Positions 12,232-55,026 of a stretch of 64,000 nucleotides of DNA are shown here, piece by piece. Made by a program: the position numbers and the translations under genes. The stretch is taken from positions 18,473 through 82,472 of the forward strand of contig JACPMF010000002.1 in NCBI GenBank assembly GCA_016186145.1, read 5' to 3'. How positions within the stretch are numbered: the stretch's first letter is position 1; every line of letters begins with the position of its first letter. The notes below the pieces were generated by a model. It was given only the letters and a program-made list of their open reading frames with translations, searched no databases and was not told the DNA's origin. The stretch is from Candidatus Sungiibacteriota bacterium (GTDB taxonomy: Bacteria; Patescibacteriota; Minisyncoccia; Sungbacterales; SURF-37).

Positions 12232-13338
12232 TCACGTAATGACTTCCCATGTGATTGGCTCGTATTTTTTTATTAATCGCCTCGCTTTTTTCCCAAGCAC
12301 ATTCTCATATTCTTCAGACGGCAGCCCTCCGGCATAGGCCTGCGGACGCATGGCGTAAAGCATATCAGCAACAACCATTGCTCCGGCAGAAATATCCTGG
12401 CCCGCCACAAGCGATTTTCGAAAGTATGGCCTAAAAACAGCCTCGTCCTCCTGTAAAACCTTCCCGCCGGAACCCATGCCGGCTTTTACAATCTCTTTTC
12501 CGAGATATTCGTTTTTCTTCTCCGGACTGCGTTCTAATTCGCGTATACCAGAAACAAGAGACCGCAATTCATCCGGCGTCATAGAAACCTTATGGTCCGC
12601 CCCCCACAGGTCGCGGGAAAATGAAAAGTGCTTTTCTATCACTTTAGCGCCCAAGGCAACCGCCGCAAACGCGGAATCAACACCGACTGAATGGTCGGAA
12701 AAACCAACAGGAATATTATACCTCTTTTTCAAAAAATCTATGGTGCCCAGATTGAGATGCCCGGGCGGGCAAGGATATTTTGATACGCAATGAAGTAAAA
12801 CCACTTGAGCGTCTCTCTGTTTAAGAAAGTCGATTGTTTTATCGAGTTCTTCAATCGTAGACATTCCTGAAGAAATAATCACGGGCTTTTTTGTCGATGC
12901 GAGGTAATCAAGAATGACGAAATCAAGAAGGTCGCCGGATCCAACCTTCCAAAGCTCCACGCCAAGCTCATTCAATTTTTTAGCCGCCCCTCTCGACATT
13001 GGCGTTGAGTGAAAAATTATGCCGAGCTCATCACAGTAAACTTTGAGCGGCCGCCAAAATTCATTAAGCGGCGTGGCATTTGTGTTTCGCGTAACCCAAG
13101 AATACCGATCGGATCCTTTGAAATGCGGGGAAACGACTTCGATATCCAGCTGTTCGTCTTCAACGTTATGCGTTTGGAATTTTACTGCATCGGCTCCTGC
13201 GTCTTTTGCCGCCCTAACTAGAGCTTTTGCGTTTTCAAGATACTCTGAAACCGGCCGCTCTTCTTCGGTTTGAATAAAATTTTTGCCGATCTCGGCTACA
13301 ATAAAAGTGCCCTTGTGTATTAAATCCCCTACTTTCAT
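12232..13338 (-). CDS. neuB: N-acetylneuraminate (nonulosonic acid) synthase, NeuB family, with C-terminal SAF domain
   Basis: NeuB TIM-barrel region (AKALVRAAKDAGADAVKFQTH) and a C-terminal antifreeze-like SAF domain. Confidence 0.8.
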   Translation of the reverse strand: MKVGDLIHKGTFIVAEIGKNFIQTEEERPVSEYLENAKALVRAAKDAGADAVKFQTHNVEDEQLDIEVVSPHFKGSDRYSWVTRNTNATPLNEFWRPLKVYCDELGIIFHSTPMSRGAAKKLNELGVELWKVGSGDLLDFVILDYLASTKKPVIISSGMSTIEELDKTIDFLKQRDAQVVLLHCVSKYPCPPGHLNLGTIDFLKKRYNIPVGFSDHSVGVDSAFAAVALGAKVIEKHFSFSRDLWGADHKVSMTPDELRSLVSGIRELERSPEKKNEYLGKEIVKAGMGSGGKVLQEDEAVFRPYFRKSLVAGQDISAGAMVVADMLYAMRPQAYAGGLPSEEYENVLGKKARRLIKKYEPITWEVIT

Positions 13339-13604
13339 CCCGTTAGTGACAAGAAGCGCTTTAAGCGCTCTCGCGCATAACGCCTGCCTGGTCCTGATTT
13401 AATTTGTTTTTCTCTGGCATAGGCATCTTTGGGATGTCTGTATGCCTCGTAGTAAATTAACTCAAACGGAGCTCGACCTTTTGTCCATGAGTCGAATTCA
13501 CCAATATTGTGTTGCTTAAAGCGCTTCCGTAAATCTGAAGTACATCCAATATACCAATCTCCAGTCTTTTTACTCCTCAATATATACACATAATGAAATT
13601 TCAT
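13335..13604 (-). CDS. GIY-YIG nuclease family protein (YhbQ/UPF0213-like)
   Basis: MKFHYVYILRS...WYIGCTSDLRKRFKQHN matches the GIY-YIG motif. About 89 aa from ATG 13604. Confidence 0.8.
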   Translation of the reverse strand: MKFHYVYILRSKKTGDWYIGCTSDLRKRFKQHNIGEFDSWTKGRAPFELIYYEAYRHPKDAYAREKQIKSGPGRRYARERLKRFLSLTG

Positions 13605-13620
13605 ATCGTCACTAACGGGA
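13338..13620. mobile_element. TIR-bounded mini-element carrying a GIY-YIG nuclease gene
   Basis: 13-bp terminal inverted repeats: tcccgttagtgac (13338-13350) and gtcactaacggga (13608-13620). Both ends are flanked by TTCAT (ttcat|ccc...ggga|ttcat). Confidence 0.55.
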
Positions 13621-13697
13621 TTCATAAAATAAAAAACCGCACGATTACTGATATTTAGTACTCACGCGGCGAGATGCGAGTTTCCAAAGGAAAATCA

Positions 13698-14486
13698 TTA
13701 CCAAACGGTCCAGCCCCCGTCTACAACAAGATTTGCTCCGGTCATATAGCTTGAGGCATCCGAGGCCAAAAAAAGGATTGCACCGTTATATTCGTGCTTC
13801 TCGGCCATACGGCCAAGAATTGTCCGTTCTTCGTACTTCTTAACAAACTCCGCCGGCTGGCCGGCAAGTACTCCGCCGGGGGTCAGCGTATTGACGCGGA
13901 TACCCGTGCCGCGAAGATATGACGCCCAAGCACGAGTAAAATTCAACACGGCACCCTTAATAGTGGCATATCCAACGGATTTGAATTTTCCTGAATCATA
14001 AATGCGGTTATCCGGTCCAACATTCCCGTAAGTTGAAGAGATATTTATGATTGAACCGCTCCCCTGCTTTTTCATAATCGGGACAACCGCCTGCATCATG
14101 AATAACATCCCATTCAATCCTACCGCAATTTCTTTTTTCCATAACTCCTGCGGATAATCTTCATAGGGCGCGAATTGACTTTTTGATTCCGGACTGCCGG
14201 GCACCGGATTCATCGCCGCATTGTTTATTAAAACATCAATGCGCCCGTGTTCTTTTTCAATCTCGGCCACGGCAAAAAAAACCGCTTCGCGATCAGAAAT
14301 GTCGACTTTCACATAACGGATGTCCGGTGATTTCGGCAGTTTCGGACTATCAACTACATCGAAAAGCACGACGCGCGCGCCGCCGTCCGCGAAACAAGAA
14401 GCGTATTCCTTGCCAAGCATACCGGCCCCGCCGGTTATGATAATTATTTTATTTTTTATCGAGAAAAGTTCGATAACATTTTGCAT
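13698..14486 (-). CDS. SDR family short-chain dehydrogenase/reductase
   Basis: IIITGGAGMLGKE glycine-rich motif, NNAA, and a YxxxK catalytic region. Confidence 0.75.
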   Translation of the reverse strand: MQNVIELFSIKNKIIIITGGAGMLGKEYASCFADGGARVVLFDVVDSPKLPKSPDIRYVKVDISDREAVFFAVAEIEKEHGRIDVLINNAAMNPVPGSPESKSQFAPYEDYPQELWKKEIAVGLNGMLFMMQAVVPIMKKQGSGSIINISSTYGNVGPDNRIYDSGKFKSVGYATIKGAVLNFTRAWASYLRGTGIRVNTLTPGGVLAGQPAEFVKKYEERTILGRMAEKHEYNGAILFLASDASSYMTGANLVVDGGWTVW

Positions 14487-14487
14487 A

Positions 14488-15474
14488 TTAAGAAAGTTTT
14501 ATTTTTGCCATTTTTTTTGCAGCAAGCGCCATCTCCAACACCGCCCTGCCTGATTTTCCGTCGCTTTCAGGATTTACGCCGCGCCGGACACAATGTATAA
14601 AATCTTTCAACTCCGCTAAATACATGCGATTCCTCTCAAAACCCTCCGGTGCCCGAATAACACGAGCTTTCCCGTTTGCCTCTGTAATACGAAGCGTATT
14701 TTCATAATAATCCCATTCCATGCTGCCAGTCGACCCGATGATCACAAAACGCTTAAAAGCCGGCCGGCTCAAGTAATCAAGAGAGGACACAACCACAGGA
14801 CAGCGTTCTGCGGAAAAGACAAGAACTGCATTATCGTCCGTATTGATGCCGAGCGCGCCGCTATTTTGCACAATCGCAGAAGCCGCTTTTGCCGGTCCAA
14901 AAAACCAGTGGATAAGATCGAGGTCATGGCTCTGTGTAAGGACAACGCCTCCGCCAAGATCACTACGTCCGGCATACGCTTTACGGTGGTCTTCCCACGG
15001 ATGCCAGCCGGGCAGATACTCTCCGGTAGCAAAACGCGCCGAATGTAAACGGCCAAGCTTTCCGGAATCTAAAAGTTTTTTGGCTTTTTTCAAAAGCGGA
15101 TGATGCCGAAAATTATATCCGACATATACTATTCTTTTCCGGCGCGCCGCTTCACGAAGCAGCTCGCCTACCCCCGCGGATGTGTGTGAAATCGGTTTTT
15201 CTATAAAAACATGGGAACCGGCTTTAACGGCCCTGAACCCGGTTGAAACATGCAAACTCGTCGGATTACAAACAAAAACCGCATCTGGTTGCTCGGTGAA
15301 TGCCGCCTTAACATCAAAAAACACCCGCGGGTGATACTCCGCAAAGAATTGCCTCTGCGGTTGATCCATCCGGCGTCTTGAACGAACCACGGCAACATCC
15401 CGATAGCCGAGCGCCAATAAATTTTTATAGTGGCGCCGACCAATGGAGCCGGTGCCAACAATAAGAAATTTCAT
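14488..15474 (-). CDS. Gfo/Idh/MocA family oxidoreductase
   Basis: N-terminal MKFLIVGTGSIGRRH Rossmann fold; the size and layout are typical of this family. Confidence 0.7.
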   Translation of the reverse strand: MKFLIVGTGSIGRRHYKNLLALGYRDVAVVRSRRRMDQPQRQFFAEYHPRVFFDVKAAFTEQPDAVFVCNPTSLHVSTGFRAVKAGSHVFIEKPISHTSAGVGELLREAARRKRIVYVGYNFRHHPLLKKAKKLLDSGKLGRLHSARFATGEYLPGWHPWEDHRKAYAGRSDLGGGVVLTQSHDLDLIHWFFGPAKAASAIVQNSGALGINTDDNAVLVFSAERCPVVVSSLDYLSRPAFKRFVIIGSTGSMEWDYYENTLRITEANGKARVIRAPEGFERNRMYLAELKDFIHCVRRGVNPESDGKSGRAVLEMALAAKKMAKIKLS

Positions 15475-15697
15475 CCCGTTAGAGACCCGCCTGCCATCGC
15501 CTCCTTATGGAGAAAGTATGCAGGTCGGTATTTTAAACCAGCTAATGAATAAATCTTTATTAAATAAAAAGGCATAGGCGGGCAGGTAGGAAATGCCTTC
15601 GGCATTTCCGTATATTAATGCCTATTTACACAACTTTTTTGAACAATACTTTTGAACCCCGCATTGCCATTTTGAAACGCTCGGATCTCTAACGGGA
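15474..15697. mobile_element. Non-coding MITE-like element of the same TIR family
   Basis: Inverted repeats tcccgttagagac (15474-15486) and tctctaacggga (15686-15697). Same TTCAT flanks. Contains an internal perfect hairpin, ggaaatgcc-ttcg-gcatttcc. No ORF. Confidence 0.5.
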
Positions 15698-15698
15698 T

Positions 15699-16466
15699 TC
15701 ATAAGAGTTTAAGCTCACGCATAGCGCGTTCTGCCAATTTTAAATCCTTTGGCTCATCCAGGTCCGCATTCCGCAGGGGATCCGTAATCACACCGCGAAT
15801 ATCAGGACCATAAATTACTCCCTTTTTTATGAATTTCGCCCTCGTTGCGTCCACTAATCCGTTCTGCCAATAAACTTTGGGCAATAACTGGCGCGGAACG
15901 TCGGTGCCAAGCTTTGAATAGTGCGCGGTTTTAATCAACGGCTTCATTATGCCGGTTTCTTGCGCGGATATCGTCCACATCTTAAAAGGATTGAATGGAT
16001 TTGGCGCTGAAACCGTACGTACAGAATCACAGCCGGTCTTCAGCATAAGCGAAATAACACGATCAATGTCTTCCGCCGTCCGCAATGGAGCGGTAGGCCT
16101 TAAGTTAACAACAATATCCGGTTTCCAGCCGCGATGTTTTTCAATCCATGACACCGCGTGCTGAAAAAACTCAATATCCGGGGATTTGTCGCCGGCAAGA
16201 TTCTTGGGTCTCAAAAAGGGTACATCCGCGCCGAAACGGCGCGCAACACGAGCAATTTTCGGGTCATCCGTGGATACGATAAAAGCGCCAAGCAGGCGAG
16301 ACTTCTTTGCTTCGCGGATAGTATAATAAATCAGCGGCTTACCCGCCAAAAGCGCGATATTCTTCCACGGGATACTTTTAGAGCCGCCCCGAGCAGGAAT
16401 AATCCCTAAGATTTTGACCTCCTTTTTGCTGTTTACCATCACTTGATGATACTTCCTTAAATTCAA
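15699..16466 (-). CDS. Acylneuraminate cytidylyltransferase, second NeuA-family paralog
   Basis: KILGIIPARGGSKSIPWKNI motif. An alternative start at 16439 is possible. Confidence 0.75.
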   Translation of the reverse strand: MNLRKYHQVMVNSKKEVKILGIIPARGGSKSIPWKNIALLAGKPLIYYTIREAKKSRLLGAFIVSTDDPKIARVARRFGADVPFLRPKNLAGDKSPDIEFFQHAVSWIEKHRGWKPDIVVNLRPTAPLRTAEDIDRVISLMLKTGCDSVRTVSAPNPFNPFKMWTISAQETGIMKPLIKTAHYSKLGTDVPRQLLPKVYWQNGLVDATRAKFIKKGVIYGPDIRGVITDPLRNADLDEPKDLKLAERAMRELKLL

Positions 16467-16488
16467 ATATGTTTTTTTGAGGCCAGAA

Positions 16489-16632
16489 GCCCTAAACCCG
16501 AAACTCTAAACCCTAAATAAACCCAAATGACCAAATCGATGGTTCGCTCATCAAGATTATATTGTTTCTCTTTTTGGGTTTCGGTCATTGTAACTTGTTT
16601 AGGGTTTAGGACCTAGAGTTTAGGGTTTAGAA
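16489..16632. repeat. Long imperfect inverted repeat in the divergent neuA2/neuB2 intergenic region
   Basis: Left arm gccctaaacccgaaactctaaaccctaaataaacccaaa; right arm tttgggtttcgg...tttagggtttagg...agagtttagggtttag. Shared units: tttagggtttag, agagttt, tttgggttt. Confidence 0.5.
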
Positions 16633-16660
16633 ACATAAATAATATAAACCATACTAAATT

Positions 16661-17713: not shown

Positions 17714-17725
17714 AGTTATGCAAAG

Positions 17726-24588: not shown

Positions 24589-24620
24589 GCTGAATGCTAA
24601 ATGATAAATGCTGAAACCGT
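24589..24620. repeat. Left inverted repeat of the four-helix-bundle cassette (ATGCTGAAT family)
   Basis: ataATGCTGAATGCTAAATGATAAATGCTGAAA. Its reverse complement recurs at 24975-25012. Confidence 0.6.
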
Positions 24621-24974
24621 TTATTGCTTCGCATTTAAGATGATTCTCGATAAAATTTTAATAATCTGCTCGTTTTCATCAATCAACTTCTCAAATTCTG
24701 TCTCTAAAACAAAACCAAGATCAAATGAAAATCGAATCCAGAATTTTGTTTCAACAGCAGATTTCTTTGCAACAGACACAAACTGAATAAAATCTTTCCT
24801 CGAAACACCAGCGCTGCCTTCAAAAAGATTCGCCGGTATAGAAGTAACCGAGCGAATTAATTGTGAGCTTACGGCAAACCCTTCAGAATTCTTTGGAAAT
24901 TTTCTTACCAGCCTTACGATATCTAGCGCAAAACGATATCCCCGCTCTTGTATATTTTCACCTTTGTTAATCAT
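24621..24974 (-). CDS. Four-helix-bundle protein (TIGR02436; 23S rRNA intervening-sequence protein family)
   Basis: About 117 aa, MINKGENIQERGYRFALDIVRLVRKFPK...KFWIRFS. Start at ATG 24974; the upstream MLNAEYL residues are encoded by the repeat. Confidence 0.7.
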   Translation of the reverse strand: MINKGENIQERGYRFALDIVRLVRKFPKNSEGFAVSSQLIRSVTSIPANLFEGSAGVSRKDFIQFVSVAKKSAVETKFWIRFSFDLGFVLETEFEKLIDENEQIIKILSRIILNAKQ

Positions 24975-25012
24975 CAGATATTCAGCATTCAGCATTTATA
25001 ATTTAGCATTCG
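24975..25012. repeat. Right inverted repeat of the four-helix-bundle cassette
   Basis: atATTCAGCATTCAGCATTTATAATTTAGCATTCG; overlaps the stop of the downstream TagF-like gene. Confidence 0.6.
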
Positions 25013-32105: not shown

Positions 32106-32188
32106 TCCGCAATTCACCCCACACATAACTTATAAGCTATGTGTGGGGTTCATCCGTCCCGCTTCAAGCGGGACGGAATTCTTGCGGA
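32106..32188. other. Structured element: two adjacent perfect hairpins enclosed by a 7-bp outer stem
   Basis: Outer stem tccgcaa/ttgcgga. Hairpin 1 (32117-32148): ccccacacata-acttataagc-tatgtgtgggg. Hairpin 2 (32153-32177): tccgtcccgc-ttcaa-gcgggacgga. Hairpin 1 shares the cccacacataact sequence with the TIRs at 47393 and 54907. Confidence 0.4.
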
Positions 32189-33288: not shown

Positions 33289-36057
33289 TCAAGAAATCAA
33301 ATAGTTTAAGAGCCTCTCAATGTTTTGTTCTATCCCAAACTTTTCATTGTCAATTTTAATATCCGGACTGGTTGGAGCCTCGTATGGATTTGTTGCGGCA
33401 ACGCCGATAAAATTCGATATCTCCCCGGCAAGGGCTTTCTTGTAAAGTCCCTTGGGGTCGCGCTCAATGCACTTCTCAAGTGAAGCGTTCACATACAACT
33501 CCAAAAATCCACCACCAATGATTGTTCGCGCCATTGCCCGATCTTCCCGATACGGCGATATTATCGGGACAAGTACAAAGTCATGCTCCCCTGCCCTCTC
33601 TCGTGCAAGTTCGGCAATCAAACGGTTATTCTCGCGTATGTCTTCGCGCGAAAAACTGAGGTGTTTGTTCTGGCCGCTTCTTATGGCATCCCCGTCAAGA
33701 ACGCACACGCTTTTCCCGCGCGACTCAAGTTCATTTTTTAATTTTTCAGCGATAGTTGATTTGCCGGACCCGGAAAGCCCCGTGAACCAAATAACGGTCC
33801 CTTTCCGATTTTCATTTTTGACAAAAACTTCCTCCCGACCGCTCACCGCTTCAGCGATGATTTCTGAAATCTCCGGCCTCATAAACCACTCGGGCGGACG
33901 TTCGCCCAGTTCAAATATTTTCCGAGCCTCGGTGCCGCTTATGGAAAGCTTGTCTGACGGGTCATGTTCCGGGCTTTCTGAAGCATGCATGTGATCTCCG
34001 GTTTTCTTTGAATAAAATACTTCCCCGAACCTTATCGGTTTAATTTTCAAATCAGGAAATTCATCAAAAATTTTATGCGATGCGTCGGCAGGGTAAAAAT
34101 TACCGACACCCGTATGATCCCGCCCTACGACAAAATGGCTGCACCCGAAATTCTGCCTGCAAATTGCGGTAAAAAGCGCCTCGCGAGGACCGGCATATCT
34201 TGAATACGTGTTAAAGGTCGCGAATACAACCTTATTTTCCGGATAAATATCATTCATCATCCGTTGATAACTTTTAATAATATATGCGGCATGGTAATCT
34301 CCCGCCTTTTTCTTACCAACCACCGGATGCACAAAAAGCCCGTCGCAATTCTCCTCTTCCAGGGCTTTTAGCTGAATATATTCATGGCTTCTATGAATTA
34401 CATTCCGCGTATGGAAGCCAACGACTCGCGACCAGTGCTTTTCCGCGAAAAGCCGGCGGACCTGGCGTGGCGCCAACGCATAATCCGAAAACTCCGCCCT
34501 TCTGCGGCGAAACAAATCGATTTTTCCGCCCACCAATATCGGGAGCATCGCCATAACCTGTTTTACGCCCGGATGACTCTCATCCAATGTGCCGTAAAGG
34601 CGCTTGGCAAAAAGTTCTTTATCAAACGCGTATATCTCATCAACACGCAAAACGGCAAAAGCGTTTCCTTGTTTGTCCGCAAGTACTACTTCGCGCCCCG
34701 GAATTAGTTTTCTCGCGGCTTCTTCAGAAACGTCTAAAACAATCGGAAGGGGCCAAATCGTTCCGTTCGCAAGACGCATCGTTTCGAGAACGCTCTCACA
34801 ATCTTTTTTTCCCATAAATCCTTCGAGCGGGCTGAACGTTCCAAACGCAATCTGTTCCGCGTCCATCTGCCGCGTTTCGTCGACTAAAATCTTCGGTACG
34901 GTTTCAAGAAACTTTTGCGCCGGCGGTTTTAACAAAATTCTTTCTACCAAGGATCCGCCATGAGGCGGTACAAGAACCGACCCGTAATCGCCCGAGAACA
35001 AATAACCGTCTTTTTCAAGGTGATTTGCAAGCTCAACCGCGGCGAGTTGGTATTCCCGACGGCTTGGGAGAGAAACGGCCTCTCCAACAAGCTTCTGCAT
35101 CATAGAAACGCATTCGAACGGGTACTTCCCTATCGCCGTCTCGGCCGAAAGGGCGACCCCGGCAGCCCCATCCAAAATCGTTGCAATAACATCGTGCGCC
35201 TCCGCCCGCGTTGGCCTTTGTTTTTCCACCATTGTTTCTAAAAGGTTTGTTGCGACAAAAACCGGTTTTCCGTGTTGGTGCGCGTGAGACATAATGATTT
35301 TCTGGGCAAATGGGATTTTCTCAATCGGTATTTCTTTTGAAAGATCGCCGCGATCAATAAGAAGCGCATCGGATTTTTGAATTATTTCGTCAAGGTTTTT
35401 CAAACCATCAACGCATTCGATCTTTGAAATAATTTTCATCCTCCCTTTTGTGGCATCCCGAACCGTGTCGACAAAATCCCCGGAACGCATAAAAGAAGCG
35501 GCAATATATCCGACACCTTCTTGCAGGCCGATCGCAATCGACTGGTAATCTTTTTCCGATAGCGGAGGCAGATCATATGCCTTCGGCATCGCTGAATCAA
35601 TAATTACAGCTTTGTTATTTCCGATACGGCCGGCACTCATCGCTTTTGCGAGAACAAAACCGTCTCCCGCATGGCTTGTATCTGCGACACGAAGAATCAA
35701 AGACTCAAAATCTATATGCAGCATATCCCCGGGCTCGAGCTGGCTTACAATATGCGAAGGGCGAAGAGAGATATTCTGTTGGTCGCCGACAATGTCTGCG
35801 GCATGAATACGCACCTCTTCGTCCTCAGAGAACATGATGGAATTCCCAGAAAGGCGGCCTGAACGGATCTGAGAACCTTCGGTATCGACAATAAATGGAA
35901 TGCCGATTTTTTTTGCAAGCGCGATAAAATAGCGTAGATCATCTACGCTTGAGTGAGACATGTTGATGCGAACGAAATCAACGCCTTTGGCCTTGAGTCT
36001 TCGAAGGCCTGCTTCGGTACGGACGGAAGGACCGAGGGTTACAATGAGTTTAACCAT
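33289..36057 (-). CDS. Tri-domain fusion: pyruvate-kinase-like barrel + sulfate adenylyltransferase (ATP sulfurylase) + adenylylsulfate kinase
   Basis: N-terminal pyruvate-kinase-like region: LIVTLGPS, DTEGSQIRSG, LIDRGDLSKEIP, ILDGAAGVALSAETAIGKYP. Middle ATP-sulfurylase region: HTRN, GRDHTG. C-terminal APS kinase: GLSGSGKST, LDGDAIR. Start at ATG 36057 (MVKLIV). Confidence 0.8.
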   Translation of the reverse strand: MVKLIVTLGPSVRTEAGLRRLKAKGVDFVRINMSHSSVDDLRYFIALAKKIGIPFIVDTEGSQIRSGRLSGNSIMFSEDEEVRIHAADIVGDQQNISLRPSHIVSQLEPGDMLHIDFESLILRVADTSHAGDGFVLAKAMSAGRIGNNKAVIIDSAMPKAYDLPPLSEKDYQSIAIGLQEGVGYIAASFMRSGDFVDTVRDATKGRMKIISKIECVDGLKNLDEIIQKSDALLIDRGDLSKEIPIEKIPFAQKIIMSHAHQHGKPVFVATNLLETMVEKQRPTRAEAHDVIATILDGAAGVALSAETAIGKYPFECVSMMQKLVGEAVSLPSRREYQLAAVELANHLEKDGYLFSGDYGSVLVPPHGGSLVERILLKPPAQKFLETVPKILVDETRQMDAEQIAFGTFSPLEGFMGKKDCESVLETMRLANGTIWPLPIVLDVSEEAARKLIPGREVVLADKQGNAFAVLRVDEIYAFDKELFAKRLYGTLDESHPGVKQVMAMLPILVGGKIDLFRRRRAEFSDYALAPRQVRRLFAEKHWSRVVGFHTRNVIHRSHEYIQLKALEEENCDGLFVHPVVGKKKAGDYHAAYIIKSYQRMMNDIYPENKVVFATFNTYSRYAGPREALFTAICRQNFGCSHFVVGRDHTGVGNFYPADASHKIFDEFPDLKIKPIRFGEVFYSKKTGDHMHASESPEHDPSDKLSISGTEARKIFELGERPPEWFMRPEISEIIAEAVSGREEVFVKNENRKGTVIWFTGLSGSGKSTIAEKLKNELESRGKSVCVLDGDAIRSGQNKHLSFSREDIRENNRLIAELARERAGEHDFVLVPIISPYREDRAMARTIIGGGFLELYVNASLEKCIERDPKGLYKKALAGEISNFIGVAATNPYEAPTSPDIKIDNEKFGIEQNIERLLNYLIS

Positions 36058-36063
36058 GATGAA

Positions 36064-36162
36064 TAATGCTGAATTATAAATGCTGAATTCTGAATAATAC
36101 GATAAAGTCATCTGCTACCAACATCGTTCAATAATTAGCATTTGGCATTCAGCATTTAGCAT
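36064..36162. repeat. Empty inverted-repeat pair of the ATGCTGAAT family
   Basis: aATGCTGAATtataaATGCTGAATtctgaat ... 45-bp spacer ... agcatttggcATTCAGCATttagcatt. No cargo ORF. The right arm encodes the C-terminus of the upstream methyltransferase. Confidence 0.5.
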
Positions 36163-37012
36163 TAAGTATGACTGTGAGCATCTTATCTTTAGGCTCCGAA
36201 ACCCTTTTATACGTCAGTCCAAGTCTTTGCGCCAAAAATTGCAAACTGGCATGGGAAAAAATGTACGGGTGATACGGATTCATTTGATCAAAAACAAGCA
36301 AATTCGGCGTCTGAATATAAATAATACCGCTCTTCAGAAGACATTCTTTTGCAAACCTAACTATGCTTACCGGGTCAATGGTATTTTCCAGAGAATGCGA
36401 AAAGACAATCGCGTCAAATTTCTCGCCCCGTTTGCCGATATTTTCCAGGTCTTCCGCATAACTTCCCAGAAGTTCAATGTTAAAGTCCTTAATGGTTTTT
36501 TGAGCTTCATCAGACGGCTCTACGGCAAAAACTTTGCACTGGTATTTTTTTTTAAATTCCGAAAGTGTTACGCCAAAACCGCAACCAACCTCTAAAACGC
36601 GAGAGTCCGCGCCAAGACTAATCGCGCTTGCAACAACCGGAATTATTGTTTTCGCCCTCTGCTCGCGATGTTTTTCCAGGCGATTTTCTAAACCCTCCTT
36701 GGGATCCCACTTCTTTTCATCATCCCACTTGTATTTCCCCGATTGCCACATCTGGCCTTCTTTATGGAAGCCGGCATTTCTTATTTTTTGCTGCCAGAAC
36801 AAATTCTTATAAAAATCCTTGTATGATTCCCTGGTCGGCCGCGGATTCATAAACTTCAAACCGCACGCGGGACAAAAAACATACCAAAAATCAACCCCGA
36901 ACCATTCAATCTTTCCATTGGGAACCATCGCTGCCCCATCGCAAAAAGGGCACGCGTCCAATGCCTCGAAATCAAAAGTGGCACTTTGATAATTATCCTC
37001 ATTCCTGTTCAT
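36149..37012 (-). CDS. Class I SAM-dependent methyltransferase with N-terminal zinc ribbon
   Basis: CPFCDG...CPACG ribbon; VLEVGCGFG motif I. Probable start at ATG 37012 (MNRNED). Confidence 0.65.
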   Translation of the reverse strand: MNRNEDNYQSATFDFEALDACPFCDGAAMVPNGKIEWFGVDFWYVFCPACGLKFMNPRPTRESYKDFYKNLFWQQKIRNAGFHKEGQMWQSGKYKWDDEKKWDPKEGLENRLEKHREQRAKTIIPVVASAISLGADSRVLEVGCGFGVTLSEFKKKYQCKVFAVEPSDEAQKTIKDFNIELLGSYAEDLENIGKRGEKFDAIVFSHSLENTIDPVSIVRFAKECLLKSGIIYIQTPNLLVFDQMNPYHPYIFSHASLQFLAQRLGLTYKRVSEPKDKMLTVILNAKC

Positions 37013-39367: not shown

Positions 39368-39371
39368 AAAT

Positions 39372-39480
39372 CAAAATTCAAAATGCAAATATCAAAATGA
39401 AATATAAAAATGCAAAAAACACCCCGTGGTACTCAACAAAATTCTCTTTGAATTTTCCTTTTTCATTTTGCATTTTGATG
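39372..39480. repeat. AT-rich long inverted repeat
   Basis: tcaaaattcaaaatgcaaatatcaaaatgaaa pairs with tttcattttgcattttgatgtttgattttga. The right arm encodes the KSKIKHQNAK C-terminus of the glycosyltransferase at 39463..40584. Confidence 0.4.
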
Positions 39481-40584
39481 TTTGATTTTTGACTTCAATA
39501 CTGCCTTATATATCTCGATATATTCCTTTGCCACCTTATCCCAACTCATTCTCTTTGCAAAATCAACCGACCCTTTCGAAAACTTTTCTTTCAGACGCGG
39601 GTCCAAGAGGATTTTAACAGCCGCAGCCGCCGCAGCGCCAGAATTCCTCGGCTCAACAAGAATACTATTTTCCCCATTTTCAACGGCATCTTCAGCTCCA
39701 TTTCCGTATGTGCCGACAATAGGCAAACCCGCTGCTGCAGCTTCCAAAAAAGCGAGGCCGAACCCCTCCACATCTCCCCGGTCATCATAAGGCAGCAACA
39801 TGAAGAGCTCGGCATTTCTATAAAGAGCCCTTAGAAACGGACGGCGTATCCCGAAAAAACAAAACGTTTTATCGGCAACGCCAAGACTTTCTGCCGGCGT
39901 GTTTTTAATATCGTGCCCGACAACGACATAATTGAGTCGGGGAAATTGCTTTATCACCTCGGCGAATGCCAAAAAAGAATATTCATATCCCTTCCGTTTT
40001 TTACCGCCGCCGACACTTAACATATACGGCTTCATTCTTTGAATCACAGCGCGTTCTTCTTCTATAAGTTCATCGTGATTGCTTCCGTCAAATTCACGCG
40101 AATCAACCGCATGACTGATGACGGAGATATCAAGACCTTTTGCCCGCAAGGAAATTTCTCTTTTTGTGTAATTTGAAACAGCAATAACTCGATCGGCGCG
40201 CCTATACGCCCAGCCGAGAAGCAGTCTTTTTACCGGATTCTGAAGTGGTTGAATCGCGCCGGTTCCCACGGCAGTAATTACAAGCCGCTTGCCAAGGCCG
40301 AGTGAAGCAACCGCGGCTATGACGCCATAGGGAAAACCGTCGAGAGCGTGAATAATATCACATTTTTTAAAAAAAGATCGGATTCGGGGAATCCTAAAAA
40401 TCATTTTTAACATATCCGAATGCAATACCGGCGCCTCCAAGGGGTGCCCGCAATCTTCCACGGTAAGAACAACCGGCCGTACTGCAGGACATGCCGCGGA
40501 AATCCCCGCTATGAAAGACAAGCCAAAACGTCCGGCTCCGGTATCCTCTTTTAAGTCATGATTTAGGTAGCAAATACGCATCAT
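39463..40584 (-). CDS. Glycosyltransferase family 4
   Basis: EGFGLAFLEAAAAGLPIVGT motif. Confidence 0.8.
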   Translation of the reverse strand: MMRICYLNHDLKEDTGAGRFGLSFIAGISAACPAVRPVVLTVEDCGHPLEAPVLHSDMLKMIFRIPRIRSFFKKCDIIHALDGFPYGVIAAVASLGLGKRLVITAVGTGAIQPLQNPVKRLLLGWAYRRADRVIAVSNYTKREISLRAKGLDISVISHAVDSREFDGSNHDELIEEERAVIQRMKPYMLSVGGGKKRKGYEYSFLAFAEVIKQFPRLNYVVVGHDIKNTPAESLGVADKTFCFFGIRRPFLRALYRNAELFMLLPYDDRGDVEGFGLAFLEAAAAGLPIVGTYGNGAEDAVENGENSILVEPRNSGAAAAAAVKILLDPRLKEKFSKGSVDFAKRMSWDKVAKEYIEIYKAVLKSKIKHQNAK

Positions 40585-46727: not shown

Positions 46728-47390
46728 CTAACTTCTGCGCACCTCTTCCAATCGCGCCTCTGTTCCAGCATCCTGCCAAAAACCGTTATGCAAAAAAACG
46801 TGGAGACTTCCAGATTCCGCAAGACGAGGAAATACGTCTTTTTCGATCATAAATGTTTTTTCCATAATTCCCTCAAAATGTTTTGGATGTAAAATGTAAC
46901 AACCGGCATTGATATATCCCGGCTTCAACTCGGCCGGTTTTTCTAAAAATGCTTTTATGCGACCGTCTTTGATTTCCAAAAGTCCGAAATCGCGCGCATC
47001 TTCGCGCCACGCGCCAACTATACATGGCATTCCCGGCTTATGCGTTTTTAAAAGCGACGTAAAATCAATATCGTTCATCACATCTCCGTTCAAAACCATA
47101 AAATCCTCGCCGATATCGCTTGTGGCAAACTTAACAGCACCCCCCGTCCCGAGCGGCTCCGGTTCAACAACATGTTCAATATAACCCTTGCCGTTGTCGG
47201 TCAGATGCGCAATTATTTGATCCGCCCGGAAACCCAAAGACAGCCGTATATCTTTAAGACCGTGCTTCTCAAGGCCCTCAACGATGTGATCAAGCATCGC
47301 CTTGCCGCGAATCTTAACAAGCGCTTTCGGAATATCTTTTGCCGAATTCGGAAGACGCGTTCCCTTGCCTCCGGCAAGTATTATGACCTT
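46728..47390 (-). CDS. Sugar-phosphate nucleotidyltransferase (NTP_transferase family)
   Basis: MKVIILAGGKGTRLP...KAL motif. ATG at 47390. Confidence 0.75.
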   Translation of the reverse strand, partial: KVIILAGGKGTRLPNSAKDIPKALVKIRGKAMLDHIVEGLEKHGLKDIRLSLGFRADQIIAHLTDNGKGYIEHVVEPEPLGTGGAVKFATSDIGEDFMVLNGDVMNDIDFTSLLKTHKPGMPCIVGAWREDARDFGLLEIKDGRIKAFLEKPAELKPGYINAGCYILHPKHFEGIMEKTFMIEKDVFPRLAESGSLHVFLHNGFWQDAGTEARLEEVRRS

Positions 47391-47392
47391 CA

Positions 47393-47687
47393 TCCCACAC
47401 ATAACTAATGCGTAAAACTATTGCGAAGTCTTTCCTTGAGCCTCCGCAGTCCCTGCGCATGTAGCTTTAAAGATTTCTCCCGATTATATGCATCTATTTT
47501 TGAAGAGTATGCCTCAAAATATACAAGGCGCCATGGAGCATACTTTTTGGTGTGGTATGAAAAACCACTATTATGCCACGAAAGTCGTTTCTGCAAATTA
47601 GAAGTACATCCTATATACAAACTGCGATTTTTCTTAGATTGTAAGAGATATACACAATAAAGCATAGCGCATTAGTTATGTGTGGGA
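47393..47687. mobile_element. TIR-bounded mini-element carrying a GIY-YIG nuclease gene (cccacacataact family)
   Basis: Perfect 19-20-bp TIRs: tcccacacataactaatgcg (47393-47412) and cgcattagttatgtgtggga (47668-47687). Flanked by ttcat on both sides. Confidence 0.6.
47405..47665 (-). CDS. GIY-YIG nuclease family protein (YhbQ-like)
   Basis: MLYCVYLLQS...LYIGCTSNLQKRLSWHN. Confidence 0.8.
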   Translation of the reverse strand: MLYCVYLLQSKKNRSLYIGCTSNLQKRLSWHNSGFSYHTKKYAPWRLVYFEAYSSKIDAYNREKSLKLHAQGLRRLKERLRNSFTH

Positions 47688-47741
47688 TTCATAAACAAAA
47701 GAAGTGATACTTCTGTCTATTCCGTAATACCCTCAAAAGCA

Positions 47742-50068: not shown

Positions 50069-50133
50069 ATAAATTTATTTATGTTAAACTATAAAAACAA
50101 GCAAAGTACTAAATTATGTGACCGGAGGTAAAA

Positions 50134-50565: not shown

Positions 50566-50599
50566 CGCAGTCCAACCAACAAACCGAAAGGAGATGCCA

Positions 50600-50935
50600 A
50601 TGTCCTACAACCATACGACGGTTGAATTCGAGGCGTTCGACGCCTTCATCATGGCCCTCCGGACCTTCGGCATCAGGCCGAAAAAGGTAGAGAACCTCGA
50701 GGTGGCAGAGGGATTTACGGGGCGGAAGTTGCGTCGCACAACTTTCATGGCCCCCCGAAAGCGAAGCACAAGTGGATTCAATGCGAAGCAACTCGGTAAT
50801 ATGCAAATGTTGGTAGTCGAGGAATATCTTGCCGTTGACGACCACGACGACGATGGCATCAGCCGCGTCGCCATCGAGGTCTATCCGTACGGCCACCGAC
50901 CGAACCTTGAAGGTCGGTGCACAATCGCCGACTGA
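50600..50935 (+). CDS. Hypothetical small protein, paralog B
   Basis: 112 aa from ATG 50600. AGGAG Shine-Dalgarno. FEAFDAFIMALRT and VVEEYLAVDD...ISRVAIEVY blocks. Local GC about 57 percent. Confidence 0.55.
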   Translation: MSYNHTTVEFEAFDAFIMALRTFGIRPKKVENLEVAEGFTGRKLRRTTFMAPRKRSTSGFNAKQLGNMQMLVVEEYLAVDDHDDDGISRVAIEVYPYGHRPNLEGRCTIAD

Positions 50936-50960
50936 TCATAAGCGCCACAAAGCGGCTCCT

Positions 50961-50992
50961 GCCGCGACCCACAGAGTCGCGGCGTTTTCTTT
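50961..50992 (+). terminator. Intrinsic terminator
   Basis: gccgcgac-ccacaga-gtcgcggc followed by gttttcttt. Confidence 0.6.
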
Positions 50993-53309: not shown

Positions 53310-53352
53310 TCCTTATAATCTTACCACGCCGAACGCTACAAAGTATCAGCAA

Positions 53353-54870
53353 TCAAATCCGTAAAAACAAGAATCCGGCAGCGACAATAACGCCAATAGC
53401 CGCGGCAACGGCAAAAAACCAAAGCGGGGAAAAACCACCTGAAGCCAAAGGACTGGCCGCCTCTTTTAAAGAAGATGATTCCTGCTGATAGCCGGGTCCA
53501 ACGCCGTTACTGTCTTTATCGTCAATAACAGGAGCAACCAAAAGAGAGTCGCGCCCATCCACTGGAACATCGCTTTCGAGTGAAAGTTTACCTTGTCGGC
53601 CTTCGGCAGATACGCTTTCCGGTAAAACCACGGCGGTATTTGGCACCAAAACCGCGGGGCCGGGAACAATGTATACGCCGGGGGTCAACGATTTTGTTTT
53701 CACAAACTTTTGCCCCCCGCCTGACGCGCGCGTAAAACTCTCCTCCATAAGGAGGGGTTCTTTAAAATCACCGTAATCAATAATTTCCTCCAACGCATTC
53801 TTCAATACTATGTATGAACCGTTTTGAAAAAGGTTAGTAACGGCATTTGGAAAAACAAGGGCTGACTTCGGCTCAATGAACGTATCTTTTTGAATCACAA
53901 AAGCAGAATCGCCGCTTTCAAAACGAAACCCGCCGAGATCAAGCCGATAAGCAGTACCATTGTAAACTTCGAGAAAACCACGCTCGCCAGACTTTGCCTC
54001 GCTGATTATTATATTTGGGCTTACTACGGTGATTTTGATATAATCGGCGCCGGCATATTCACCGGAGGAAACATTCAGACTTGCAGTATAACTGCCTGGA
54101 AAATAATAAACATGCGATACGATTTTTCCTTCTTTTGTTGTGCCATCGCCGAAGTTCCAGGAAAATCTCGCCGAAATCAGCGGCTCACCGTTTATGCCGT
54201 CGGCACTTCCCCGAAACTCCACCAATGAGCCCTGAACCGCGGTGCGGTCTTTACCGGCATACGCTTTCAAAGATGGCAGTGGCGTCACGCCGGATGAAAC
54301 CGCGACCTCTTCCGATGGCAGATCTTGCGGCGAATCATCGGGCGGCGCGCTTTCACTATTCTCGTCTGAAGCATTTGCGGCGCGCGGAGTAGAGACGGCA
54401 GTAATCCACCCCGAAGATACGCGCTGCATAGTTTCTTTGGTAGTATTATCACCTGCAGGCCAGCCGGCGGATGCGTCAACTTGATCGACTGCTGCTCCGA
54501 TGTCATTTTTGAGTATCAACACCTCGCCGCTATTCGAAAGCGCGCCGGTATAAATACAGTCTGCCGCAACATTCGGCACGGTGTCGTCATTTGTTCTTTC
54601 CAATAAAAAATATCCGCCTGCCGACAGAACGGTATTCGCGCATTTATCCGAATTGATAGTAAGGCCGTATTCGCCGCCTCGCCACTCAAGGCGCCAGCCG
54701 GAAAGGTCAACCGGCGAACCCGCATCATTCTTCAACTCAACCCATTCATCGGCCGTAGAAACACCTGTTCCCATCCATGCGACCTCGCTAATCACCACCG
54801 AAGCCAATGCCGATTGGGCCAAAGCCAACACCGCCAGCGCCAATAAAACATAAAGCCATGCACTCCGCAT
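53353..54870 (-). CDS. Surface protein with signal peptide, two lamin-tail domains, a PKD domain and a C-terminal TM anchor
   Basis: Lamin-tail segments: ISEVAWMG...DEWVELKN...DLSGWRL and ISEAKSG...FLEVYNG. PKD segment: WNFGDGT...HVY. ATG at 54870 (MRSAWL). Confidence 0.55.
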   Translation of the reverse strand: MRSAWLYVLLALAVLALAQSALASVVISEVAWMGTGVSTADEWVELKNDAGSPVDLSGWRLEWRGGEYGLTINSDKCANTVLSAGGYFLLERTNDDTVPNVAADCIYTGALSNSGEVLILKNDIGAAVDQVDASAGWPAGDNTTKETMQRVSSGWITAVSTPRAANASDENSESAPPDDSPQDLPSEEVAVSSGVTPLPSLKAYAGKDRTAVQGSLVEFRGSADGINGEPLISARFSWNFGDGTTKEGKIVSHVYYFPGSYTASLNVSSGEYAGADYIKITVVSPNIIISEAKSGERGFLEVYNGTAYRLDLGGFRFESGDSAFVIQKDTFIEPKSALVFPNAVTNLFQNGSYIVLKNALEEIIDYGDFKEPLLMEESFTRASGGGQKFVKTKSLTPGVYIVPGPAVLVPNTAVVLPESVSAEGRQGKLSLESDVPVDGRDSLLVAPVIDDKDSNGVGPGYQQESSSLKEAASPLASGGFSPLWFFAVAAAIGVIVAAGFLFLRI

Positions 54871-54906
54871 GGCTTTATTCGTAGCCGAGTTGTAGAAACT
54901 CGTCAA

Positions 54907-55026
54907 TCCCACACATAACTGGACATGTTTTTGTTTTCAGTCACGAAAGAATTGGTAGCGATTTGTCAGACTAAAAAGTATGTTATGATTTAAAACACGG
55001 GACATTATGTCAAGTTATGTGTGGGA
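54907..55026. mobile_element. Non-coding MITE-like element of the cccacacataact TIR family
   Basis: tcccacacataact (54907-54920) and agttatgtgtggga (55013-55026). Flanked by tcaa on both sides. Confidence 0.5.

Follow-up and report, generated by a model that had tools for sequence, protein, structure and literature searches.

Repeat-bounded insertions with small GIY-YIG nuclease genes in a Candidatus Sungbacteria genome and their relation to the Ssn nucleases

Described nuclease and repeat systems

Single-domain GIY-YIG nucleases, designated Ssn, have been reported to be flanked by cognate hairpin repeats, of which many solo copies exist (Chenal et al., Nat Commun 2025; PMC11893778). In biochemical assays, these enzymes bind the cognate hairpin in single-stranded DNA and cut upstream of it; the authors also remarked on the likeness of the system to insertion sequences (PMC11893778). 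In CPR bacteria, GIY-YIG ORFs occur in non-intron rRNA insertions, which Tsurumaki et al. (2024) placed outside homing (PMC11270868). The intervening sequence of Coxiella has a 28-bp terminal stem, which is cut by RNase III (PMC4990558).

Here, a window of 64,000 nucleotides from Candidatus Sungbacteria (CPR), a surface-polysaccharide gene cluster, was analysed. An earlier, sequence-only reading had proposed a previously unrecognised mobile or homing system. The claim of novelty is partly right: the Ssn nucleases and the CPR rRNA ORFs were known, while the split-hairpin layout, the duplications, the empty sites and the codon capture are unreported in the papers searched.

Five repeat-bounded loci and their nucleases

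All five loci were confirmed in the window, with sizes from ~30 to 300 bp. They form two inverted-repeat families, TCCCGTTAG and TCCCACACATAAC, and not the single family first proposed; as proposed, the arms are common to gene-bearing and gene-less copies. Each family has one GIY-YIG-bearing copy and one or two gene-less copies in the window, the latter retaining no residual GIY-YIG coding. Element 1 (TCCCGTTAG class; 13338-13620, minus strand) is 283 bp long and coding end to end. Its arms, 13338-13350 (TCCCGTTAGTGAC) and 13608-13620, are exact reverse complements, and its GIY-YIG ORF (13335-13625, minus strand) encodes 96 aa. One copy of the target-site duplication lies at the NeuB start (13334-13337; TTCA on the plus strand, TGAA on the minus strand), the other at 13621-13624. 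The nearest relative of its protein (L075, 63% identity) has the same repeat class. Element 2 (15474-15697, minus strand, 224 bp) shares this class and is gene-less. It was inserted at the ATGA stop/start overlap of the cytidylyltransferase and Gfo/Idh/MocA genes; its arms (15474-15486 and 15685-15697) have one mismatch, its TTCA copies are at 15470-15473 and 15698-15701, and it contains an internal perfect hairpin (ggaaatgcc-ttcg-ggcatttcc).

Element 3 (TCCCACACATAAC class; 47393-47687, minus strand, 295 bp) lies at the start codon of a nucleotidyltransferase gene. Its 21-nt arms (47392-47412 and 47668-47688) are 100% complementary, its TTCA copies are at 47389-47392 and 47688-47691, and its GIY-YIG ORF (47405-47665, minus strand) encodes 86 aa. 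Element 4 (CCCACACATAAC class; 54907-55026, no strand assigned) is a gene-less copy of 120 bp with divergent genes on either side; its 21-nt arms (54906-54926 and 55007-55027) are 95% complementary, and TCAA (TTGA on the minus strand) is duplicated at 54903-54906 and 55027-55030. Element 5 (32117-32148, no strand assigned) is a solo hairpin whose arms abut, CCCCACACATA.../...TATGTGTGGGG. These arms are 17 nt each (32116-32149), and the TTCA copies are at 32113-32116 and 32149-32152, within TTCAC on the left and TTCAT on the right. In L006, a locus of another genome, TTCA likewise flanks a near-identical hairpin, although the surroundings are unrelated. The flanks reported earlier are present on both sides, TTCAT at elements 1-3 and TCAA(T) at element 4; a 4-bp duplication is the best reading, with TTCA on the plus strand and TGAA on the coding strand (TTGA at element 4). 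The motif CCCACACATA (at most one mismatch) occurs 7 times versus 1.9 expected, and none of 100 shuffles reached 7; TCCCGTTAGWGAC (at most two mismatches) occurs 5 times versus 1.3 expected, and 1 shuffle in 100 gave as many. At 24592-25011 there is a sixth small ORF bounded by repeats, which is of another type.

Both enclosed ORFs match the Pfam GIY-YIG model (E 2e-15 and 1.7e-15). The two proteins share only 51% identity, which gives no hint of recent activity in the source genome. The residues Y6, Y17, G19, R27, H31, and E63, which we take to be the GIY-YIG catalytic residues, are conserved in 28 of 28 aligned sequences. The ORF is under strong purifying selection (dN/dS 0.08-0.10). As the YhbQ/UPF0213 likeness seen earlier would suggest, the nearest solved structures are UPF0213 BH0048 and Slx1; the nuclease is a single-domain UPF0213/Slx1-like protein.

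Homing endonucleases also belong to the GIY-YIG superfamily. The genes might then be free-standing homing endonuclease genes, which spread by double-strand-break repair between homologous loci; their intergenic positions and the weak, sub-threshold profile matches to a group I intron endonuclease model would fit. However, the protein has no DNA-binding domain, and its fold is far closer to Slx1/UPF0213 (TM 0.65-0.70) than to I-TevI (0.38). From genome to genome, the copies adjoin different, unrelated genes, and they carry duplications; 2.9 million viral contigs gave only 4 weak partial matches to the family. The rRNA insertions with GIY-YIG ORFs have likewise been set apart from homing (PMC11270868). 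Homing is therefore very unlikely; of the earlier "mobile or homing system", the homing part is dropped and the mobile part stands on the empty sites and duplications.

Insertion, gene-arm pairing and host junctions

In related genomes, the site of element 2 is empty in L081 and is occupied by a 120-bp relative in L084/L085; the site of element 3 is empty in L088. The flanks of the empty and filled sites match base for base, with ATGAA present once in the former and twice in the latter. The presence of the elements also varies among close relatives. Direct repeats of at least 4 nt surround 43 of 79 CCC-type repeat pairs, compared with 7.8% at random positions. The duplications are locus-specific and equal on the left and right (TGAA, TGAG, TGGA, TGCG, TTGA, TATG, TTTA, TAAA, and TGTA). 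Two loci on different contigs of one genome (L030 and L034) are identical across the whole element, and the identity stops at the arms. The five window loci are genuine insertions of mobile elements; the discrete, repeat-bounded insertions with a short target-site duplication described at first sight are borne out by the empty sites of elements 2 and 3. The strong TGAA bias could result from target preference, from selection after insertion, or from copying by microhomology.

For comparison, 80 loci from other genomes were used, and genes were counted as bracketed when the repeats scored at least 11. About 59 of the 80 GIY-YIG genes are bracketed, with a maximum of 10 in the shuffled control; such flanks accompany most GIY-YIG genes elsewhere, and the first reading survives the refuting test that it had set itself. 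About a quarter of the family members have no flanking repeats (such as L006 and L019). The nearest protein neighbour shares the repeat class in 49 of 51 cases, in hosts as distant as Sungbacteria and Woesebacteria; protein identity is 0.65 within a repeat class versus 0.48 between classes. In the window and 95 loci, such arms enclosed no cargo other than the GIY-YIG gene. Because the repeat class changes with the protein clade and no other gene is carried, "cargo", the word chosen earlier, is probably wrong, and the nuclease seems to be the element's own gene.

In IS families, inverted repeats accompanied by a duplication of fixed length are the hallmark of DDE transposition. The loci might therefore be ordinary MITEs that owe their movement, and their 4-bp duplications, to an unrelated DDE transposase acting in trans, with the GIY-YIG gene as a passenger. 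The many gene-less copies, which have only the arms in common, are consistent with this, and the joining of DNA lies beyond GIY-YIG chemistry. However, neither the window nor the 95 loci yielded a longer element that has these arms together with a transposase gene. The pairing of arm class with GIY-YIG clade, the GIY-YIG gene as the sole gene between the arms, and the strong selection on the ORF also argue against a passenger. Transposition in trans is considered unlikely.

Individual genomes contain several divergent paralogues, each with its own arm class (the window; the JAHILT01 loci). This bears on a second explanation, a host system like SsnA/NTS of Neisseria, for example one restricting incoming single-stranded DNA, in which the insertions would be old and now immobile. 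SsnA/NTS modulates transformation in N. meningitidis (PMC11893778). The purifying selection, the age of the two window copies implied by their divergence, and the surface-polysaccharide setting, a region type surrounded by NTS repeats in Neisseria, would agree with such a role. The multiple paralogues, the identical copies at two sites of one genome, the presence/absence differences among close relatives, and the insertions within rRNA and RNase P genes speak against it, and a purely host-serving system seems improbable. A host role and selfish spread are compatible, not mutually exclusive.

The same element family, carrying the same GIY-YIG family, occurs within 16S (L042) and 23S (L078) rRNA genes; in an RNase P RNA, helix P3 is replaced by an element of this family. 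No duplication was seen at these rRNA and RNase P copies. Their positions would require an RNA stem, and the elements run in the same direction as the host transcript. The paired arms might thus be palindromes evolved in place, which form an RNase III stem for the processing of operon transcripts, as in the Coxiella intervening sequence (PMC4990558). However, the empty sites and duplications make insertion at the DNA level evident, and SsnA is inactive on RNA (PMC11893778). The arm mismatches comprise 14 G-T and 13 A-C, so that G-U is not in excess and a sense-RNA bias is absent; the arms are constrained at the DNA level. An origin as RNA stems is most improbable, whereas RNA processing may explain how hosts tolerate the insertions.

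The earlier remark that the insertions overlap start and stop codons of adjacent genes was confirmed. In the window, 3 of 5 elements lie on start-codon TGAA sites (P about 9e-5). The ORF of element 1 takes its ATG from within the left copy of the duplicated ATGAA, and its TGA stop in the right copy overlaps the NeuB start codon as ATGA. In element 3, a 6-codon leader ORF (MNPTHN*, 47672-47692) begins at the duplicated host ATG, and the GIY-YIG stop is 11 nt upstream of the host ATG; in other elements, a leader MNPTHNLH* stops 2 nt ahead of the GIY-YIG ATG. A left-junction start codon is present in 33 of 61 elements, and in 34 of 61 the right junction is the start of a host ORF with 60 aa or more. 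In fifteen elements, the frame that opens at the duplicated start codon continues across the left arm; 9 of these 15 have an ORF stop that shares bases with the host start, giving ATGA or GTGA. The duplicated ATGA often provides the nuclease start, the nuclease stop and the restored host start.

Proposed mechanism and comparison with known systems

On balance, the loci are probably copies of a very small selfish DNA element, whose own GIY-YIG nuclease acts on the hairpin of its arms. A full copy is 275-330 bp long, with one gene for an 85-96 aa single-domain nuclease of putative Ssn type and a 12-25 bp inverted repeat that starts with CCC and ends with GGG. The gene between the two arms therefore lies in the loop of a single long-range hairpin. 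Insertion duplicates a 4-bp target, most often TGAA. The gene-less copies (25-225 bp, down to a bare hairpin) retain the arms alone. Such an element has neither its own promoter nor its own ribosome-binding site. It would survive where the duplicated (A)TGA supplies a start codon on the 5' side; on the 3' side, the duplication would supply the stop codon, or a stop would lie no more than 12 nt away. The host ATG or GTG is restored by TG preceded by the final base of the element (A or G). The nuclease would be translated from the host initiation site, and ribosomes would then continue to the host gene.

By analogy with Ssn/NTS biochemistry, the nuclease may recognise the stem of its own arms in single-stranded DNA and nick just outside it, and this nick may initiate copying or excision. 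We infer that the element is moved by the nuclease itself. We know of no GIY-YIG enzyme that performs transposition. GIY-YIG enzymes are hydrolases and form no covalent intermediate; a host ligase or polymerase would thus be needed to finish the reaction.

The element can be compared with five known systems. The free-standing GIY-YIG homing endonucleases (T4 Seg proteins, I-TevI) have the same catalytic domain and are also selfish genes between host genes. However, the window protein lacks a DNA-binding domain and has a Slx1/UPF0213-like, not I-TevI-like, fold; its elements have terminal repeats, duplications and many unrelated sites, and their family is almost absent from viral contigs. The bacterial MITEs (Correia elements and NIMEs of Neisseria; Rickettsia palindromic elements) are likewise short, with terminal inverted repeats and duplications, and they are found within genes and RNA genes or at the borders of genes; their small copies encode no transposase. 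Here, each arm family has a matching, autonomous-looking partner of only ~290 bp. In the REP/RAYT and IS200/IS605 systems, which include very small elements, one small gene is also tied to short hairpin repeats amplified in the genome, and hairpins in single-stranded DNA are the known or presumed substrate of the enzyme. Those enzymes are HUH tyrosine transposases with a covalent intermediate, whereas a GIY-YIG hydrolase is found here; IS200/IS605 elements have neither the terminal inverted repeats nor the duplication (4 bp) of the window elements.

The rRNA intervening sequences (23S of Coxiella, Leptospira, and Salmonella; the CPR non-intron GIY-YIG insertions) also contain a small ORF within long-stem terminal inverted repeats, have gene-less versions, and replace a hairpin loop of a structured RNA (PMC4990558, PMC11270868). 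The 16S and 23S copies described above are such cases, with the same GIY-YIG family. However, the majority of the present copies have 4-bp duplications and occupy start codons in the spaces between protein-coding genes, and the classical ORF encodes a four-helix-bundle S23p protein instead of a GIY-YIG protein.

The Ssn systems (SsnA with NTS/dRS3 in Neisseria; "SRM" repeats elsewhere) share the single-domain GIY-YIG protein of ~90 aa, the gene flanked on both sides by cognate hairpin-forming repeats with a CCC...GGG stem, the additional gene-less repeat copies, and the co-variation of protein and repeat. A near-consensus NTS (GTCATTCCCGCGAAAGCGGGAATC) was found in L034, adjoining elements of the GIY-YIG family. 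The Ssn flanks are complete hairpins, whereas each flank of a window gene forms half of a single hairpin whose loop contains that gene. The arms here are longer (12-25 nt) and, as judged by eye, outside the published SRM pattern. The mobility seen here in duplications, empty sites and identical copies is absent from the paper of Chenal et al., which describes neither start/stop codon capture nor insertion into rRNA and RNase P genes and does not mention CPR hosts (PMC11893778). The window elements are a mobile variant of the Ssn nuclease/hairpin-repeat pairing, with nucleases of putative Ssn type.

Occupied and empty sites of the elements

The window belongs to a metagenome-assembled genome of Candidatus Sungbacteria (Patescibacteria/CPR), with nearly all genes on the minus strand and a coding density of about 91%. 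The region holds a surface-polysaccharide or teichoic-acid-like cluster, including NeuB, a cytidylyltransferase, glycosyltransferases, and glycerophosphotransferases. All five loci described in the sequence-only reading are present. Two carry a GIY-YIG gene, element 1 (13338-13620; ORF 13335-13625, minus strand, 96 aa) and element 3 (47393-47687; ORF 47405-47665, minus strand, 86 aa), and the two GIY-YIG domains share 51% identity. The gene-less element 2 (15474-15697), element 4 (54907-55026), and solo hairpin, element 5 (32117-32148), are additional repeat copies in the genome. The window elements have terminal inverted repeats (arms) on both ends, and the arms form two families: TCCCGTTAG(W)GAC in elements 1 and 2, and (T/C)CCCACACATAAC in elements 3, 4, and 5. 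On the coding strand, with slashes marking the junctions, each window element is laid out as ...(A)TGAA/TCCC...GGGA/TGAA...; element 4 has TTGA. The lamin-tail/PKD protein (53353-54912) is listed with a GTG start that falls within the right arm of element 4 (54870-54912 region); the in-frame ATG 42 nt downstream, followed by the signal-peptide-like MRSAWLYVLLALAVLAL, is the likelier start.

Empty and filled sites, whose alignment had been proposed as a check, could be compared for elements 2 and 3. In the comparison locus L081 (Gfo/Idh/MocA protein 79% identical), the stop of the cytidylyltransferase gene overlaps the start of Gfo in ttattATGAagttt, with nothing inserted. The filled junction in the window is cttATGAA/TCCCGTTAGAG...224 bp...CTCTAACGGG/ATGAAattt. 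Two Sungbacteria loci (L084 and L085, 64% identical) contain a 120-bp gene-less element with the same arms at the same junction, with ATGAA on each side. The site of element 3 is empty in L088, a Sungiibacteriota locus with the same glycosyltransferase-to-nucleotidyltransferase synteny (protein 67% identical), which has the uninterrupted intergenic sequence ggtattatggaatagatagaagtatcgtttcttttgtttATGAAagtcataatacttgc. The window has the L088-type sequence, the 295-bp element, and a second ATGAA, at a start codon. No strict empty site was found for element 1, and the relatives examined carry NeuB in another arrangement. At the cytidylyltransferase/Gfo junction of L082 and L083 (3985-4005), the sequence ATGAgcgcgaagcaaATGAAg contains two ATGA copies 11 nt apart; these may be what is left of a lost element, or have nothing to do with one.

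Direct repeats of at least 4 nt flank 43 of 79 CCC-type repeat pairs, compared with 7.8% at random positions. These 4-bp duplications vary in sequence by locus, with left and right equal within a locus, as expected from the short target-site duplication that had been suspected. Elements ending in G instead of A have ATGAA as the left flank and GTGAA as the right flank (L041, L051); thus, the duplication is 4 bp, and the last purine of the element completes the host start codon. In one genome, two copies on different contigs (L030, L034) are identical over the whole element, and the identity stops at the arms. The elements are very probably DNA insertions of a mobile family. Clustered copies were also seen: two in tandem in L053 (841-1392), sharing the middle ATGAGT, and in L030 (3275-3347) a full element with a solo hairpin of its own arm class directly after it.

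The nuclease and its arms in other genomes

Both window proteins match the GIY-YIG domain PF01541 well above the cut-off (57.3 and 57.5 bits vs 22.6). The family proteins are single-domain, of 86 and 89-96 aa, and no accessory domain was detected beside GIY-YIG. Six residues (Y6, Y17, G19, R27, H31, and E63) are conserved without exception in an alignment of 28 sequences that includes both window proteins; on the pattern of I-TevI, the two Tyr, the Arg, the His, and the Glu are assigned catalytic roles. The AlphaFold2 model (pLDDT 85) has the GIY-YIG alpha/beta fold. Its best PDB matches are UPF0213 BH0048 and the nuclease domains of Slx1 (TM 0.65-0.70, rmsd 1.6-2.9 A), and the superposition on I-TevI is far poorer (TM 0.38). 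The suggested comparison with YhbQ/UPF0213 is supported by the family profile, which matches UPF0213 BH0048 at E 7e-12 and Slx1 at E 3e-7 among solved structures. BH0048, the closest solved relative, is filed under cd10456, the CDD family sister to cd10448.

A protein-profile scan, using one genome per species, gave 80 loci. Most are in Patescibacteria; the rest are in bins labelled Omnitrophota, WOR-3, Balneolaceae, Phycisphaerae, and Gammaproteobacteria. An inverted repeat scoring at least 11 closely encloses the ORF in about 59 of the 80 loci, compared with a maximum of 10 for shuffled flanks, so the flanks noticed in the window recur around GIY-YIG genes elsewhere. Shuffles served as the control, because loci share arm families and cross-locus pairing of flanks was unsuitable. 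The bracketed loci, like the window elements, have terminal inverted repeats on both ends, and the elements span 275-330 bp. All arm classes start with (T/A/C)CCC, including CCCACACATAAC, CCCRGCAC, CCCGTTAG, CCCGCCCTTCC, CCCTCACCAC, and others. The whole family comprises 22,608 clusters at 50% identity (E up to 1e-3), and is almost absent from viral contigs, with only 4 weak partial matches. Thousands of genes annotated as 'hypothetical GIY-YIG' are concerned, and gene callers mis-set the starts of neighbouring genes. In many family hits, the GIY-YIG match covers only residues 1-84 of a protein of 240-340 aa (P0368, P0387, P0388, P0390, and others); such proteins may represent read-through, or gene calls in which an element is fused to the downstream host gene. 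Some members lack arms of their own (L019 3001-3363, L006 3001-3399, also L015, L020, and L024). L019 carries a 91-bp gene-less element (3273-3363) inside the ATGA in which the GIY-YIG stop overlaps the following gene. The gene-less element of L006 (122 bp, 3278-3399) lies at the ATGAA of the following gene, just 3' of the GIY-YIG stop.

Protein clade and arm class co-vary: the nearest protein neighbour shares the arm class in 49 of 51 cases. The closest relative of the element 1 protein is a Woesebacteria copy with CACGTTAGAG arms (63% identity). The dN/dS ratio is 0.08-0.10 for clean pairs, and the arms remain identical at dS 0.36-0.65. The co-variation, the exclusivity, the purifying selection, and the biochemistry of the Ssn nucleases argue that the element owes its mobility to its own GIY-YIG protein, which would act on the arm-formed stem in single-stranded DNA. 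A hydrolase cannot join DNA, which counts against this assignment, and we regard the question as evenly balanced. Under one alternative, the elements are MITEs mobilized in trans, and the GIY-YIG gene is a passenger. Gene-less copies of 25-150 bp, in several arm classes and each with its own 4-bp duplication, occur in the flanks of many loci. No GIY-YIG coding remnant was detectable in them (best tblastn E 0.017), so their status as deletion derivatives is unproven. Longer elements, in which these arms enclose a different cargo, were also sought; all pairs above 450 bp were adjacent elements or chance matches.

Borrowed codons and RNA-gene hosts

The anatomy of the elements allows us to infer how the nuclease might be expressed. 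The elements have no Shine-Dalgarno sequence. The left junction supplies a start codon in 33 of 61 elements, and a host ORF begins at the right junction in 34 of 61. Two layouts were distinguished. The first comprises window element 1, the CCCGTTAG and CCCGCCC classes, and a few CCCACAC elements; here, 15 elements can be read in frame from the duplicated host ATG or GTG across the left arm into the nuclease. In nine of the 15 (element 1, CCCGTTAG, CCCGCCC), the nuclease ends at the TGA of the right duplicate, and this stop overlaps the host start (ATGA/GTGA); each of these is therefore a single end-to-end ORF, and several have no internal ATG. In the second layout, that of window element 3 and of most CCCACAC elements, a leader of 6-10 codons (MNPTHNLH*) starts at the duplicated ATG. 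The leader stop is separated from the nuclease ATG by 2 nt in a typical copy (L001) and by 6 nt in window element 3, and the nuclease itself ends 11-12 nt 5' of the host ATG. In both layouts, the nuclease would be translated from the host initiation region, with a subsequent hand-over to the host gene. Such an element is very economical, with no expression signals and with start and stop codons taken from the duplicated ATGA of the host.

Three of the five window elements lie on start-codon TGAA sites, among 725 TGAA/TTCA sites in the window (P about 9e-5), which agrees with the gene-boundary insertion proposed in the sequence-only reading. This placement may be due to translation from the host initiation region. 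The bias might reflect targeting or survival after insertion, and the data are compatible with either source. TTGAC flanks were also considered as -35 promoter boxes, and were dropped as not separable from target preference.

Some members are located inside RNA genes. GIY-YIG elements were found inside a 23S gene (L078 2290-2591) and a 16S gene (L042 2958-3267), with arms of 19-25 nt, in the orientation of the rRNA strand, and with no duplication. The L042 element is flanked by AAGTCAAACG and AGTGGCAAAC in 16S. Compared with E. coli 16S, its insertion point is the expected place of helix 6, and the flanks suggest that the element replaces this helix. In RNase P RNA, a complete element occupies the expected position of helix P3, in a Balneolaceae chromosome (L028 2973-3276) and in WOR-3 (L032 2977-3273). 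The true P1 5' strand GGAAAGCC, which pairs with GGCTTTCC, and the P2 5' strand GGTAATC, which pairs with GATTACC, are just 5' of the left arm, and AGGAAAGTCCGG comes after the right arm. In cmscan, P1-P3 could only be forced onto the 3' end of the element, with many non-canonical pairs. The L032 RNase P gene also holds solo hairpins of the family type (3304-3328, 3504-3527).

The copies in 16S, 23S, and RNase P genes are all co-oriented with the RNA gene, and no duplication was seen. The repeats might be RNA-only hairpins, an alternative on which the arm mismatches bear. These include 14 G-U and 13 A-C pairs; there is no G-U excess, so the pairing constraint on the arms is not specific to the sense RNA. 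The Rfam scan of the window gave no match to rRNA or any other family, and the tRNA scan gave none; the window hairpins are thus not a described RNA family. The RNA-gene copies tie the family to the non-intron GIY-YIG insertions of CPR rRNA genes (PMC11270868) and, more loosely, to the classical intervening sequences (PMC4990558). For these CPR insertions, which resemble intervening sequences and have long lacked an explanation, the elements are a concrete candidate origin.

The window also contains a small ORF bounded by repeats of another type (24592-25011; ORF 24621-24995, minus strand), inserted between two glycerophosphotransferase genes. Its product is a '23S rRNA intervening sequence protein' of the four-helix-bundle kind (PF05635, E 9e-27; TIGR02436). 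The 24-nt arms consist of AATGCTN heptamer repeats; the left arm contains the stop codon of the upstream gene, and 10 nt separate the end of the right arm from the next ATG. A metagenome scan with this protein found two loci only (L094, L095), too few to generalise; the arms of both are again heptamer repeats, and in L094 a host ATG directly adjoins the right arm. The 23S intervening sequence of Coxiella likewise has heptamer repeats (PMC4990558). Long gene-less intergenic hairpins of 7-nt words (AAATCAA/AATGCAA, CCCTAAA, and AGAAATT among them) occur at 39368-39495, 16487-16628, 36065-36169, and 12172-12224, and most end just 5' of a start codon. The hairpin at 36065-36169 belongs to the AATGCTG word family, as does the four-helix-bundle element. 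Judged from these words, the long hairpins may be gene-less counterparts of that element. A 940-aa ORF (33289-36111, minus strand) combines a pyruvate-kinase barrel, PUA_2, ATP-sulfurylase, and APS kinase in one polypeptide. Its annotated ATG is within a heptamer-repeat hairpin, so an ATG about 50 nt downstream may be the true start.

Relationship to known systems

A joint reading of these features can be offered tentatively. The elements might be the smallest autonomous transposons known (~280-300 bp) and a new mechanistic class, in which the sole encoded protein is a GIY-YIG single-strand hairpin nuclease. The end-to-end ORF would borrow its start, its stop, and the restored start of the host from a 4-bp ATGA-type duplication. 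Such elements could be the source of the gene-less hairpin repeats, the non-intron insertions of CPR rRNA genes, and the ORF-bearing substitute for P3 in RNase P RNA.

The sequence-only reading had proposed a previously unrecognised mobile or homing system. The mobile part is largely right; 'previously unrecognised' is too strong, as the pairing of Ssn nucleases with hairpins is known (PMC11893778). A homing endonuclease gene would spread to the same homologous site with no duplication, and its protein would typically have a DNA-binding domain. Here, the flanking genes are unrelated between copies, duplications are present, the protein has a single domain, and its fold is far from I-TevI; the homing proposal was not upheld. 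The elements resemble IS and MITE families in their terminal inverted repeats, a duplication of fixed length and variable sequence, and empty and filled sites. The sole element ORF is GIY-YIG; neither a recognised transposase (DDE, DEDD, HUH, Ser, or Tyr) nor a larger partner was found, so no existing IS family can accommodate the elements. Unlike rRNA intervening sequences, which take the place of a helix tip within an rRNA gene and are removed from the transcript by RNase III, the window elements sit between protein-coding genes, whereas their relatives in L042 and L078 are inside 16S and 23S genes.

The closest known system is that of the Ssn proteins (cd10448) of Chenal et al. 2025, single-domain GIY-YIG nucleases specific for ssDNA, with dsDNA and RNA left uncut; their binding site is a cognate hairpin repeat, upstream of which they cleave (PMC11893778). 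Repeats are present on both sides of 42% of ssn genes, and repeat-rich genomes usually have the gene; the authors likened NTS-ssnA-NTS to an insertion sequence and to REP/RAYT (PMC11893778). Duplications, empty sites, and movement were not shown, and CPR bacteria were not mentioned (PMC11893778). A tiny GIY-YIG nuclease paired with hairpin repeats is thus already known, and the present elements could alternatively be a domesticated Ssn-like host system. They share with Ssn the single domain of about 90 aa and the extra gene-less repeat copies in the genome. Repeats flank the gene on both sides in ~59 of 80 loci, but these flanks are the two arms of one hairpin and not two hairpins, which leaves the correspondence with the Ssn arrangement ambiguous. 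The arms do not fit the SRM repeat pattern of Ssn, as judged by eye. The junction TTCAT-CCC resembles the NTS core GTCAT-TCCC, and CGTCAATCCC of element 4 resembles the NTS sequence CGTCATTCCC; both are recorded as resemblance only. In L034 (1409-1461), next to family elements, a Neisseria-type NTS/dRS3 hairpin close to the consensus, GTCATTCCCGCGAAAGCGGGAATC, is present in two copies inverted to each other; this genome also has identical CCCCGCACATAA-class elements and CCCGTTAG-class gene-less copies. In the literature searched, the split-hairpin architecture, direct insertion evidence, the codon-capture layout, and the RNase P and rRNA hosts were unreported; searches that combined GIY-YIG with inverted repeats at the termini, duplications, MITEs, Patescibacteria, intervening sequences, or hairpins found no account of such an architecture. 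As pairs of arm and nuclease, the elements are candidate sequence-specific cutters of ssDNA. With regard to Ssn, the empty sites and duplications offer the first sequence-level evidence that units of nuclease and hairpin of this sort move as mobile elements.
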